DNA of 34,315 nt from a virus (lineage: Duplodnaviria; Caudoviricetes), in the IMG/VR virus record IMGVR_UViG_3300002301_000042, positions 1 to 34,315 of that record; one strand, 5' to 3'. The translations under genes were made by a program, and so were the position numbers. Each line of letters starts with the position of its first letter. Positions within the stretch are counted from its first letter, which is position 1. The notes beneath the pieces are model-generated. The model made no database searches. It was not told the DNA's origin and was given only the letters and a program-made list of their open reading frames with translations. This document shows, piece after piece, positions 9,792 through 31,111 of this stretch.

Positions 9792-11525
9792 TTAGAATAA
9801 TTGGCTAGCGTACAGTGAAGTACATAGCTGGTTTCTGATGGCAGTGTCTTGAGTTAAAGCCTGCGCTTGTGCAAACTTAACGGCAAGAGTAGCGTTTTGA
9901 GCAAGCATGCCGGAATAGTAAGGGTCACGGTAGATCAAGTTCATGGAATATCCATCTTGATTTATGTGAGTAAGAGCTTGCTTACCGAGGACTGTATTGT
10001 AATACACGTCTTGTCCGTTAGCAGATGCTCCCCTTGCTACTGGGGCTTCTGAGGATGTTAAGATCCTAATATTGAACACGTTACCGTACTCTGATGGAAG
10101 TGCGGAGGTGTTATTAGAATAATCCCATTGGTTCTTGAATCCTTGTCCAAGCAAACCATCAAAGTCAGTTTGTAGCTCTGTAGAAGACAACATAAAATAT
10201 GAGCTTCTTACAGGGCCTGTCAATTCTGTTACTTGTTGACCTATTGCTAGGCGGGCCAAATCTTCTCAGCTGGCCTCTCACGCTTTCGTCATGAGTTCAG
10301 AGCACCGCATCTTTGCTTCTTTAACCAATTCGTACATAGCATCATAATCTTCTTGATCCCAAGCACCTTCTGCATGTGCTCTTTTCAATGCTCTGTCCCA
10401 AATTTTGAAAGATTTAGCAAAGTCTTCTCGCTTGCTTCGTTCAGGCTGTATTGGACTAGATAACTCGTCATTTGATACTGAATATTCACACGGAACCTTT
10501 TTCCAAGAGTTACTCATTCCATATCTATAATCATCGCCCATAACTTGCCCCTTGTTGTCGCCGTCTTTACGCTGCGAGTTCCAAGTCTATCAGAGAAGAT
10601 TTTAATTCGGCACACTTTCTACCGAATCTGTCCTCGCCTTCAATACCTGACATAAATTTGTAGGCATTGTTGGTATCCAAAGTTGTTGCTACTAGAGAAA
10701 AATCTGATATCCCATAGTTAGTAGGGTTATCATTATTTGATCCCCCACCGCAATTTATTTCCGCATTCTGTTACTTGTTGACCTATTTCTAGGCGCATAA
10801 GTCTTCTCAGCTTATGTCTCTATGTTTCCATAGAGTTCAGAGTACCGCATCTCAACCATAGAGCATACAAATCAAAGATATCTCGATCTGTCTATCCATG
10901 AATTCTTTGCTAAATTCTTCTGTTGAGTCTTCTCGCTTACTTCGTTCAGGGTCTAAATGAGCCTTATAGTTTTCTGAAGTAATTCCGGTGTCATTAAGAC
11001 AACCAATTAATCCATGCGCTTTAAGATTTTCCATTCTTTTACTCATAAAGTTCCCCCTTGTTGTCGCCGTCTTTACGCTGCGAGTTCCAAGTCTATCAGA
11101 GAAGATTTATCCTGCGCCATCATTAACGCAGCGGAGACGATATAGTCTCTAAGAATAAGATCCTCGGCCTGTCTCATTGCGACCGCAAGTCTTTCGCTTA
11201 CCCAAGCCAATACACCTTCTTGGTCTTGTAAAATTACCTGCTCGTTGATGACGCAGCCAGTACCAAAAAAAGCCATTTGTGCATCTATGATGTCACGTTG
11301 TGGCACTTGAGCAGGAGGATCAATACCGCTATTACCGAGTTGTACGGTAGGAGGGGTAAGAGCCTTCGGCCTCATAAAGCGACAAGTAGTTCCACCGTTA
11401 GGAGGCATACTGATCTTGTCAGCTGGTATGATATAGTTCATTGTTGGCGTAGGCACATAGAGCATAGCAGGCGCGAGCGACTGTAGGATCATAGGGCCTA
11501 GACTGCCAGTTGTAGTAATAGACAT
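9792..11525 (-). CDS. Major capsid protein (N4 gp56-like), spliced: exons 11525-11126, 10763-10621 and 10220-9792; 323 aa
   Basis: Position after the scaffold gene with AAGGA RBS. Exon lengths 400+143+429=972 nt give one open frame with junctions VSAA-S-EINCGGG and EGEDRFG-TGPVRSSYF. Confidence 0.88.
10221..10620 (-). ncRNA. Group I intron 2 in the capsid gene (400 nt)
   Basis: P1 TTCGGT|..GCCGAA with U-G at the splice site; P3 TCTTCTC/GAGAAGA; P7 GA(A)GCA/TGCTC; P8 CTTTGCT/AGCAAAG; P9 hairpins with a GCAA loop; terminal G at 10221. Confidence 0.88.
10278..10541 (-). CDS. Small intron-internal ORF (87 aa), unknown function
   Basis: ATG 6 nt after AAGGGG; crosses the ribozyme core (PERSKRED); no nuclease motif. 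Confidence 0.3.
   Translation of the reverse strand: MGDDYRYGMSNSWKKVPCEYSVSNDELSSPIQPERSKREDFAKSFKIWDRALKRAHAEGAWDQEDYDAMYELVKEAKMRCSELMTKA
10621..10763 (-). CDS. Capsid exon 2 (143 nt), absent from the ORF track
   Basis: Reads (S)EINCGGGSNNDNPTNYGISDFSLVATTLDTNNAYKFMSGIEGEDRFG without stops, in the frame required by both junctions. Confidence 0.88.
10764..11125 (-). ncRNA. Group I intron 1 in the capsid gene (362 nt)
   Basis: P1 CTGCGT|..GCGCAG with U-G at the splice site; P3 TCTTCTC/GAGAAGA; P7 GA(A)GTA/TACTC; P8 CTCAAC/GTTGAG; P9 CTCTATG-GAAA-CATAGAG; terminal G at 10764. Confidence 0.88.
10852..11046 (-). CDS. Small intron-internal ORF (64 aa), unknown function
   Basis: ATG 6 nt after AAGGGGG; crosses the ribozyme core (PERSKRED); no nuclease motif. 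Confidence 0.3.
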   Translation of the reverse strand: MSKRMENLKAHGLIGCLNDTGITSENYKAHLDPERSKREDSTEEFSKEFMDRQIEISLICMLYG

Positions 11526-11668: not shown

Positions 11669-11698
11669 CTTTTAGCAAATTAAAGTTTTAATTGTCAA
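11669..11698 (-). promoter_or_regulatory. sigma70-like capsid promoter
   Basis: Minus strand TTGACA (11698-11693), then TGc-TAAAAG after an 18-nt spacer, just past the scaffold stop. Confidence 0.5.
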
Positions 11699-11703
11699 GT
11701 ATG

Positions 11704-12339
11704 TCATTGAAGCCTCAAGCTTTTCTTAAGTTGTTGCATCTTGTCATAAGCACTCTTTTGGCCTACAGGTGAAAAATCAGATTGAGACGCGTACGGGGCT
11801 GTAGCTTGTCCTGTTGGCTGATAGTAGGGAGATCTTCTCTTATTATCTACAGTCTGCTGGATAGAGGCTTTTTCTTCTGGAGGTTTATGTAGTCCAAGGG
11901 CCTTGATGTTCTTATACACAAGCTTCTGTCTTTCAAAAGTATCGGGCATCTCAAGAATTGCTTCCGCAAGTTCCGGATCTTTCTCAGCGAACTTTTGGGC
12001 GTGCTGCATAATTTCTTGAAAGTCTGGATTGGTTTTAAGCCAATTTTGTTGTCTTTCTTTGGTAAGAGCTTGTTGAACGGCACTTTGAATCTCATTTTGG
12101 GTCTGTTGTTTGATGTTTTCCCTTTCTTTTGAGAGGGTTTTATTTAACTTTCTTCTGTCGATATATGGATCATCGCCATCGTCATCGTCATCGTCTTTAG
12201 GAGCTGCTCTAGAGGCTTGTAACTCTGCAATACGAACGTCTTTTTCAGATAACATCTTCTGGAACATTTGTTCTTGCTTGCGAAAGTTGATTTCGGTAGC
12301 AGATGGTGCAGGGGCGGGTACGTTTGGATCAACAGTCAT
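11704..12339 (-). CDS. Putative capsid scaffolding protein
   Basis: 211 aa, charged and coiled-coil-like with an acidic tract, immediately upstream of the capsid gene; AGGAG RBS. Confidence 0.7.
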   Translation of the reverse strand: MTVDPNVPAPAPSATEINFRKQEQMFQKMLSEKDVRIAELQASRAAPKDDDDDDGDDPYIDRRKLNKTLSKERENIKQQTQNEIQSAVQQALTKERQQNWLKTNPDFQEIMQHAQKFAEKDPELAEAILEMPDTFERQKLVYKNIKALGLHKPPEEKASIQQTVDNKRRSPYYQPTGQATAPYASQSDFSPVGQKSAYDKMQQLKKSLRLQ

Positions 12340-18061: not shown

Positions 18062-18586
18062 TCATGAAATCTTGTTGCTTTTGATAACTCGATATCCATT
18101 ATTTTCCAATAGATTTTTGGCCCATTCAATGTGATCCTCTAATCTGCATCCATTAGGTTGGTGAGTAGACCACAATTCGAGATTTTCTATGCGATTATCG
18201 TCCCGTATTCCATTTTTATGGTGAACATTCTCACCCTCTTTTAGAGGTCTTCCTAAATGTTCAGACATCACATGAATATGTTCAAATATTGCATGTTTAT
18301 CACTCATCTTATTTGGATGATTTCGTACAGTTATGATTCTATATCCATTGTGATTGATGTGACCTTCTCCTCTAGAAGCCCTCAATTTTACGTCCAAAGG
18401 TAGATTGTTTTTTATTCTATAAGCACGTCGTCTTTTTTCCAGGTATTCTTTATGCTTTTCGGGATTGTTTTTGAAAAATTCTCTATTCGCACATGAGGCA
18501 CACATATTTCCATTTCTTCTGTCTCTTTGCACGAGAATCCTAGTACATAAAGAACAATCAATCCTGATCTTTTTCCTAGTCTTCAT
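18062..18586 (-). CDS. HNH homing endonuclease
   Basis: [38 protein letters not shown]; N-terminal CxxC..CxxC; ATGA overlap with the terminase stop. Confidence 0.9.
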
Positions 18587-26616: not shown

Positions 26617-26883
26617 ATGGGAATATACTATTCGGCGGTAGACTGGAAGGAAAAGAAACAATTTGAAGCTCCTAAGGGTTTTTCGATAAAAGCACCTGGA
26701 ATATTTCATCCGGAAAACCCATTTCCTAATATGGTCATGATGAAAAATTACCAGGGATATAATTTTGAATTGGTCGGAGACATGAGCGTTGAATATGAAA
26801 CGTCTTGTTGTTTTGAGGATATTACAGAAAAAGTTTACGAAGAATACTTATCATATTTTCCGGAATACAGGAAGGACAAATGA
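26617..26883 (+). CDS. Hypothetical protein
   Basis: 88 aa using the RBS in the second repeat copy. Confidence 0.65.
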   Translation: MGIYYSAVDWKEKKQFEAPKGFSIKAPGIFHPENPFPNMVMMKNYQGYNFELVGDMSVEYETSCCFEDITEKVYEEYLSYFPEYRKDK

Positions 26884-27260
26884 AATTTAGCGAAGCAATG
26901 GCTGCTCTTGAAGCCGGAAAGAAAGTTAGATTGCCAGAATGGCCTGAATCTCAATACATTCATTTGCAAAAACATTGGATTCAAGATGAGCGATTACGTG
27001 ATTGTGATATTGATTGTTCATGGATAAAAGATAATTGGGAACTGTACGAAGAACCCATCAAAATGTATTCATTCATGGAAGCTGTTCAGTTGATGAAGGA
27101 AGGTAAAAAAGTAAAAAGACTGCATGGTTCTTTTGGAGATTTTTCTATAAAAAGAGCACCTTGTGATTTTATTTTTTATTGCAAAGAATCCATCAGCTTC
27201 CCATTGAGAATTTCAGATGTTGAAGCAACCGACTGGATCATCGTGGAGGATAAGTGTTAA
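26880..27260 (+). CDS. Tandem DUF2829/Tad2-like protein
   Basis: Two units: MKFSEAMAALEAGKKVRLPEW..DNWELYE and YSFMEAVQLMKEGKKVKR..DVEATDWIIVE. Confidence 0.65.
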   Translation: MKFSEAMAALEAGKKVRLPEWPESQYIHLQKHWIQDERLRDCDIDCSWIKDNWELYEEPIKMYSFMEAVQLMKEGKKVKRLHGSFGDFSIKRAPCDFIFYCKESISFPLRISDVEATDWIIVEDKC

Positions 27261-30367: not shown

Positions 30368-31111
30368 ATGAAAATTCTTAAAAAGAAAAATGTAGACAAT
30401 GAATTTATAAATATAGATTTTGAATCTTTTGAAAAATACATCCAATCTATCGCCGATCACCAGGAAAAAAATGGATTTATTAATTTCATATATATGAAAG
30501 ATTATTTGAAATTCAAAGAATTGGTAAAAAAATTTTCATGGAGAATCGTCTATCATTCATTCATGTTTCATCTGTCCACAGATCCAAAGGCAACTTTGAT
30601 GGTCGAGCATTGCTGCGATAAGTGTAACGAAGTAACATATGACAAGTTGACAAAGTTAGAATTTTTTGAATTATTTTCAGAAGATAGAAAGAAAATATAT
30701 AGATGCTATAAATGTAGCTGGAAACTAGAAGAGAACTCAAATAACTATATTGAGAATTGGCTTACTCCTGACAATGATTGGTTTAAAGATGTTGAAACGG
30801 ATCAAATAATAACAATAGAAGACAAATGGACAGCTCTCAATGATGTAAGAAAAACTAGGGATCTTGATGAAGAAATGATCATAAATCATGCTAAAAAAAT
30901 GAAGTATAAAGATTTTTTAAGAACTCTGTATTGGAAAGTAGTTTCCATGAAAAAGAAATCTGACTTCTTTTTTAGATGCCAAATGTGTAATGGGACTAAG
31001 ATGCTCTCAACTCATCACAGAACTTATGACATAATAGGAAAAGAAATGTTGAACATGCAGGATTTAACGGTTCTATGCTCAAACTGCCACGGAAAACATC
31101 ATGAAAAATAA
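30368..31111 (+). CDS. HNH-domain protein
   Basis: C-terminal YKDFLRTLYW..CQMCN..HHRTY..DLTVLCSNCHGKHH. Confidence 0.8.
   Translation: MKILKKKNVDNEFINIDFESFEKYIQSIADHQEKNGFINFIYMKDYLKFKELVKKFSWRIVYHSFMFHLSTDPKATLMVEHCCDKCNEVTYDKLTKLEFFELFSEDRKKIYRCYKCSWKLEENSNNYIENWLTPDNDWFKDVETDQIITIEDKWTALNDVRKTRDLDEEMIINHAKKMKYKDFLRTLYWKVVSMKKKSDFFFRCQMCNGTKMLSTHHRTYDIIGKEMLNMQDLTVLCSNCHGKHHEK

Follow-up and report, generated by a model that had tools for sequence, protein, structure and literature searches.

The capsid gene of the phage analyzed here is split by two group I introns which are likely to splice themselves out of the late capsid message, and each of them carries, in frame with the exon ahead of it, a Leu-Ala-Ala-stop ending that in our judgment probably tags the fragments made from unspliced message for destruction, the likely agent being ClpXP or a similar host protease. 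The window, i.e., the whole stretch of DNA that was analyzed, is a phage contig of 34,315 nt in which a scan of the open reading frames (ORFs) finds a terminase and a P22-like portal, followed by the capsid region on the minus strand. Introns in capsid genes are already known; new are the selected degron-like tails and a variant guanosine-binding site. The gene is arranged as follows (CDS, coding sequence):

11126..11525, minus strand: capsid exon 1, 400 nt, residues 1-133 and base 1 of codon 134, TIGR04387 positions 32-128
10764..11125, minus strand: intron A (group I), 362 nt, phase 1, after CDS nt 400
10621..10763, minus strand: capsid exon 2, 143 nt, residues 134-181, not called as an ORF
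10221..10620, minus strand: intron B (group I), 400 nt, phase 0, after CDS nt 543
9792..10220, minus strand: capsid exon 3, 429 nt, residues 182-323 and the stop codon, phrog_1357 major head, TIGR04387 positions 183-313

Excision of 11125-10764 and 10620-10221 yields a single frame of 323 amino acids and a stop codon, and the hidden 143-nt exon (10763-10621) which had been proposed in an earlier note on this DNA is needed for this frame. A search with exon 1 returned 462 full-length relatives. When the best 120 of these 462 were compared with the joined protein the median identity was 86.9%, and 119 of the 120 homologues listed align over at least 300 residues. The closest among the matches listed, the intron-less P0002, is 91.8% identical over 317 amino acids with zero gaps, and across the junctions the alignment with this intron-less relative is collinear and free of gaps, as the earlier proposal would have it. 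P0002 (92% identical) scores 73.5 bits with TIGR04387 against a cut-off of 60; the family score is thus taken from P0002 together with exons 1 and 3, which are collinear, and not from the joined protein itself. Judged by TIGR04387 and phrog_1357 the split gene encodes a major capsid protein of the N4-gp56 family, and the TIGR04387 match upholds the capsid identity assigned earlier. The label does not make the phage N4-like, because tblastn of the capsid protein against phage records gave no match. Among the 34 window ORFs scanned there is no second capsid gene, in keeping with the earlier claim that the full capsid protein requires two splicing events. Skipping of the 143-nt exon 2 would shift the frame, and the product would be untagged.

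A spliced aligner, run with a nucleotide profile from 67 distinct intron-less relatives, returned exactly the four boundaries of the earlier note, and hence the same ends for exon 2, with or without a U/G bonus. The last base is U in each upstream exon and G in each insert. In the relatives we mapped 152 distinct inserts at 34 sites of the same capsid gene; 22 of these 152 placements shift by one base when the U/G bonus is removed. The site of intron A is absent from all 152 relatives' inserts, and that of intron B is common to introns of 11 distinct relatives.

The cores of the two introns were assigned with reference to what we take to be the canonical group I layout (P3-P7-P8, with the G-binding G-C pair after a bulged base):

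10839..10945, minus strand: intron A core; P7 5′ strand 10945-10938 plus one extra base; P3 3′ strand 10934-10928 (pairs with 11105-11099); J8/7 10850-10845; P7 3′ strand 10844-10839
10299..10440, minus strand: intron B core; P7 5′ strand 10440-10433 plus one extra base; P3 3′ strand 10429-10423 (pairs with 10599-10593); J8/7 10310-10305; P7 3′ strand 10304-10299

The complementary strands of the P3-P7 pseudoknot with P8 could be located in both introns. P1 has 6 bp in intron A and 8 bp in intron B, with a U-G pair at the splice site; P10, of 2 and 3 bp, respectively, is a weak helix. Of the peripheral elements P2 and P7.1/7.2 are absent, P5 is short and there are three P9 stems. The free fold of intron A contains P1, P3, P4, P5, P6, P8 and the P9 group (z −3.5), while that of intron B is less distinct (z −1.8). 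Covariation was assessed in 33 of the 35 relatives' inserts of 190-240 nt, two near-duplicates being left out. In these introns the 39 named pairs (P1, P3-P9) are paired in 98.2% of the cases and 34 of them change on both sides; slid controls pair at about 40%, and kinship among the introns inflates the covariation scores. The splice-site U-G and the P7 G-C are invariant in 33/33, whereas the other five pairs of P1, all seven of P3 and four of the six of P7 covary. P4 is formed by four standard pairs and an invariant A-G. A core-only covariance model built from 31 relatives' introns, from which the window introns were excluded, scores 36.7 and 35.1 bits for the two inserts and 11 bits for the next stretch of the window; its alignment covers P4-P6 and skips P7-P8, the region of the long loops and the variant P7. 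A sequence profile, also made without the window introns, has matches in the window to the two inserts alone, each of which it recognizes in both halves. A scan with the curated Rfam models, which the earlier note had offered as a check, gave no group I match for either insert (E<=1 on the window, E<=10 on the region), which is a score against a library and not a defining trait of group I introns. The group I features that had been claimed (P1 with U-G, P3, P7, P8, P9 and a terminal G) are borne out by the folds, the located strands and the covariation in relatives. On this comparative evidence the inserts A and B are confirmed as group I introns which split the capsid gene, and we infer that they self-splice. 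In practical terms, annotation wrongly breaks such capsid genes into fragments, and the introns escape Rfam.

Some inserts of the relatives have no such core. In 35 inserts of 30-93 nt, and in some of about 950 nt at CDS site 312, we find P1, P10 and a terminal G in the absence of a core, and in the inserts of 30-93 nt the P1 and P10 helices covary. The short ones are located at CDS sites 264, 275, 312 and 342 (L093, L116, L132, L145, L141, L164, L097, L111, L169 and others). The long ones at site 312 (L105, L109, L115, L133, L139, L140; 946-987 nt) have no detectable ribozyme core, and the Ala-Ala tail described below is present. An intron with a core lies at most 100 nt downstream of 40 of the 41 core-less inserts, the exception being at a contig end, compared with 8 of 110 introns that have a core themselves. 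Going by this arrangement, the core-less inserts likely borrow the ribozyme of the neighboring intron. Ribosomal bypass was considered for the tiny inserts and dropped: all 35 have a P1 of at least five pairs and 34 also a P10 of at least three, against 0.4 in shuffles.

When translated from the exon ahead of them, the two window introns end the protein in the same manner:

11073..11081, minus strand: Ala-Ala-stop of intron A, in the P5 loop, in frame with exon 1; the unspliced product has 150 amino acids and ends Leu-Ala-Ala
10567..10575, minus strand: Ala-Ala-stop of intron B, in the P5 loop, in frame with exons 1+2; the product after removal of intron A alone has 198 amino acids and ends Leu-Ala-Ala

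Despite the differing phases, the stop is reached 50-51 nt into the intron after a tail of 17 residues in both cases. An ssrA-like degron has a free C-terminal Ala-Ala on an unstructured tail, which the 17-residue tails ending Leu-Ala-Ala match, and ClpXP is described as recognizing the ssrA tag mainly by its terminal Ala-Ala (PMC7652416). By this resemblance the Leu-Ala-Ala tails are likely to mark the fragments of unspliced products for destruction. The window contains no core-less insert; both its introns have core and tag of their own, as independent splicing would lead one to expect.

Since translation is coupled to transcription in bacteria, message that has yet to be spliced gets translated. 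We propose that each intron would splice alone, in a guanosine-dependent reaction of two steps and in either order, with the flipped pair and the changed triple partner of the variant guanosine site (see below) compensating one another. A ribosome that enters unspliced intron A or B in frame would stop in the P5 loop and give rise to the fragment of 150 or 198 amino acids ending Leu-Ala-Ala. By the comparison with relatives, this ending is kept at the peptide level, and only where the ribosome arrives with a long capsid fragment. Degradation of the fragment would prevent half-made subunits from poisoning shell assembly, the toxicity of the fragments being assumed here, and would lower the cost of residing in a very highly expressed gene. 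Counter to this reading, the window introns let ribosomes run over P1, P3 and P4; most introns are said to stop ribosomes at the 5′ junction, thus sparing the ribozyme (PMC3073962).

The inserts of the relatives allow the ending to be followed across the family. An Ala-Ala end is found in 88 of the 146 relatives' inserts with an in-frame stop, compared with 0/143 and 0/144 in the other frames, a mean of 0.6 (maximum 3) in shuffles and 16/894 among other ORFs; the 152 inserts are related and the counts overstate the number of independent events. The Ala-Ala tails occur at 22 of the 34 insert sites, and their presence depends on the position in the gene: none of the 14 inserts at CDS nt <=101 (fragment of fewer than 35 residues) is tagged, 49 of 93 are at nt 198-366, and all 39 are at nt >=369. 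The intermediate class of 198-366 is resolved when exposure is considered, since introns with a core at CDS nt >=198 are tagged in 54/57 cases when free-standing and in 2/40 when they lie directly behind a core-less insert. Six inserts have no stop of their own, and in all six the ribosome would run out of frame into the next exon and end there at LAA (3), QAA (1) or LVA (2). This off-frame stop is found in 6/6 exons after stop-less inserts, in 6/67 intron-less genes and in 0/8 genes with other inserts at that site.

Could the ending be selected as a peptide or as a stop context for a purpose other than ClpXP? It might park the ribosome at P5 and in this way aid the folding of the core, or it might serve Tsp, Lon or FtsH. 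The clustering of the tail stops at 50-63 nt into the intron speaks for parking, as does the report that group I splicing benefits when the upstream exon is translated (PMC3073962). Parking requires a stop at this position, however, and not two alanines, and the Ala-Ala ending is also found with stops at 15-36 nt in core-less inserts and at 78-90 nt in P6a. A further argument for such a role comes from a second set of introns, which were picked by the intron core pattern and partly overlap the first relatives' set. There the Ala-Ala end is present in 19 of 31 capsid introns beyond residue 122 (7/7 among the closest) and in 1 of 10 at residues 36-122, and 8 of the 12 remaining tails are valine-rich, e.g., VVAFS and VVLN, hydrophobic tails of distant relatives at the same place. 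The Ala-Ala ending is not universal among distant relatives. Weighing these points we regard a selected ending that does not act through ClpXP as unlikely. The valine-rich tails ending in Ser or Asn at the same P5 position belong to distant capsid genes (L193, L195, L218, L238, L240, L248, L261, L301) and to one portal gene (the intron in L222); these tails may mark another host group or another protease.

Somewhat less probable still is that the introns are real and self-splicing and the Ala-Ala-stop merely accompanies a P5-loop RNA motif that goes back to a single ancestor. The residues ahead of the tail, SSLIDLE, are indeed the translation of P3, J3/4 and P4, a 5′ block of about 58 nt is identical between the two window introns, and 48 of the 88 tails are in or before the P5 loop. 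However, the tails come in 21 different 9-mers, in which each of the four Ala codons is found at either position and each of the three stop codons occurs, and within the first 110 nt the motif occurs in frame 93 times compared with 6 and 5 times out of frame. The tail is moreover found in P6a (8 cases), in core-less inserts (32) and out of frame inside exons, and it is lacking in the shielded introns. This pattern across codons, places and exposure can be explained by selection on the end of the peptide and cannot be explained by RNA structure.

The guanosine site of both window introns departs from the usual one by an extra base directly after the G-binding G in P7. The same extra base, of variable identity (U, C or A), is present in 23 of 104 parsed relatives' introns at 10 sites, most members of the family having the usual P7. 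In 28/28 introns in which the neighboring P7 pair is flipped to G-C the last base of J8/7 is G, while it is A in 75/75 introns with the usual C-G pair; one intron has another pair. The flipped pair and the last J8/7 base presumably correspond to the C266-G309-A306 triple in Tetrahymena numbering, and their covariation supports a working three-dimensional G-site. On a tree of 90 rows the variant is clustered (3 changes versus 16.7 when shuffled), and with 3 changes a single origin is not borne out. The variant represents a natural rewiring of the group I active site where its conservation is highest. No report of the P7 variant, of Ala-Ala intron tails or of core-less phage mini-introns was found in the open-access literature.

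Through this same part of the core run two ORFs:

10852..11046, minus strand: 64-codon ORF of intron A, starting in the P6a loop and crossing P6, P7 and P3 to the P8 loop; no family match
10278..10541, minus strand: 87-codon ORF of intron B, starting in the P6a loop and crossing P6, P7, P3, the P8 loop and the second P7 strand

Neither ORF has a match in Pfam or NCBIfam, by which no endonuclease such as is typical of homing introns is found within the window introns, and there was no usable atlas match. For the 87-codon ORF we find one relative, which shares the second half only. In both introns the ATG lies 3-4 nt after the first P6 strand and is preceded by a purine-rich strand, which from its position could serve as ribosome-binding site. 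Among 29 introns with a P6a loop of 60-260 nt, 27 have an ATG, and in 25 the same frame is open into the core (0.9 in shuffles); in 14 of 19 introns with the variant P7 the P8 loop is also long and the frame open across it. Two further introns, L091 at site 366 (788 nt) and L165 at site 282 (774 nt), have a sense strand free of stops over P6a loops of 570-590 nt. Similarity among the 27 loop peptides is confined to 4 pairs, most being unrelated, so that translation and not its product may be what is conserved. We can only guess that ribosomes cover the long loops or melt misfolded cores.

These ORFs and the extra base after the G-binding G are what one could cite for the view that the variant P7 cripples the ribozymes and that the introns need each other or a protein helper, perhaps the core-crossing ORFs themselves; the core-less inserts of the relatives, too, must already rely on a partner. 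We consider this very improbable: the variant is also found as the sole intron of a gene and comes with compensating changes at its 10 sites, and two variant introns have no loop ORF, apart from the unrelatedness of the loop peptides. Beyond the reading preferred for the window, we lean slightly towards a lineage of group I introns that is specialized on capsid genes and brings along a protein quality control of its own. Every intron that can be reached with a long capsid fragment would hard-code an ssrA-like degron, even by means of the silent positions of the next exon; a sub-lineage would use for splicing a guanosine site that is altered by an extra bulge and a swapped triple, with ribosomes translating a short gene across the core; and in relatives one ribozyme would remove an adjacent core-less intron of 30-68 nt.

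The ends of intron A proposed earlier are also matched by a natural junction at the DNA level. In DNA contigs of a ~99% identical strain from two studies (X3 and X4) 10763 is joined unambiguously to 11126 with intron A absent exactly, and this strain still keeps intron B; a more distant relative from a third study (X5) is also without intron A. As contigs of another study (X2) span both ends of intron A with zero differences, the intron is not an assembly error. Next to the intron A site, in exon 2 (window 10663-10763), 9 of 101 bases differ from the strain without intron A compared with ~1% elsewhere. This divergence is possibly a co-conversion tract, and it agrees with recombination with a diverged phage through which intron A was either gained or lost. 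That the capsid gene is dead or that the inserts are removed from the DNA and not from the RNA can practically be dismissed, although an allele without intron A exists as DNA and the window of 34.3 kb, shorter than the ~40 kb of many relatives, leaves room for a second capsid gene, since the exons are intact and 92% identical to relatives, the inserts have covarying RNA helices, U-G and terminal G, and presence or absence among strains is expected of mobile introns.

The earlier note had considered a capsid gene an unusual host for introns. This does not hold, in view of precedents in LittleE, Tuc2009 and crAss-like phages and of the relatives themselves, 56 of 125 of which carry 1-5 inserts. 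In this retrieval-biased sample of near-complete relatives 69 have none, 19 one, 14 two, 11 three, 8 four and 4 five. A scan with the core pattern leads to an estimate of about 700 matching stretches in IMG/VR, and 41 of the 91 introns parsed fall in this N4-gp56-type capsid family. Of the other 50, 29 have an upstream frame of at least 40 codons, some splice sites being mis-called, and PHROGs named 14 further hosts (11 other capsid proteins, one portal, one ribonucleotide reductase and one HNH). As far as these sequences go, the intron lineage favors capsid genes, and the lowered cost of residence proposed above would explain this crowding.

In mycobacteriophage LittleE splicing of a capsid intron was demonstrated by RT-PCR and N-terminal sequencing, and Tuc2009 is cited there for another (Pope et al. 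2013, PMC3706429). As in the window, the LittleE intron is a probable group I intron in the major capsid gene with U before it and G at its end. It is, however, a single intron of 819 bp with an endonuclease gene, in contrast to the two endonuclease-free introns around a 143-nt exon found here; the Ala-Ala tails and the variant P7 are on the side of the window, the available part of that paper making no mention of a tail. The crAss-like phages of the Delta and Zeta groups have intron-rich capsid genes, one being in five fragments (Yutin et al. 2021, PMC7886860), and like our relatives they have several group I introns per gene. These phages are unrelated to the window phage and much larger, and their introns were found by way of endonuclease domains; the part of the study available contains no analysis of RNA structure or tails. 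The available part of PMC11878797 has nothing on capsids.

The T4 td intron with I-TevI resembles the window introns in that an in-frame stop of the intron truncates the unspliced product and an ORF of the P6 loop overlaps P6a and P7. In td the stop is at the junction and the product is untagged, whereas the ribosome in the window reads 17 codons to the Ala-Ala end. Endonuclease ORFs which extend into the intron core are known as "core creep" (PMC3073962, PMC8565351); the ORFs of the window differ from these in having 64-87 codons, in not being endonucleases and in crossing P7 and P3 into P8. With tmRNA/ssrA the window shares that an incomplete protein ends in a hydrophobic residue followed by Ala-Ala (PMC7652416). 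The tag predicted here as degron is hard-coded in the intron and requires no ribosome rescue, and if our reading is true it is a cis-encoded counterpart of tmRNA tagging which shows how introns are tolerated in one of the most expressed genes of a phage.

Near-identical DNA is present in freshwater, lake, aquatic and marine metagenomes. The loci of 14 relatives sit in genome bins of unrelated phyla and of archaea, which look like mis-binned phage contigs. Searches of the window for tRNA and tmRNA found none, and a promoter and terminator scan stayed at chance level. Three free-standing HNH endonuclease-like genes are located at 1697-2524, 18062-18586 and 30368-31111 of the window, one of them directly after the terminase, and are candidates for mobilizing the endonuclease-free introns. 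The capsid gene is preceded by a gene for 211 amino acids (window 11704-12339) in the position usual for a scaffold protein; its matches to cyclodipeptide synthase are sub-threshold only and probably due to chance. Between this gene and the capsid gene, at window 11698-11704, the contigs of the X3 and X4 strain have ~250 different bases. Further along, at window 26880-27260, there is a Tad2-like (Thoeris anti-defence) domain (PF11195, E 7e-11).
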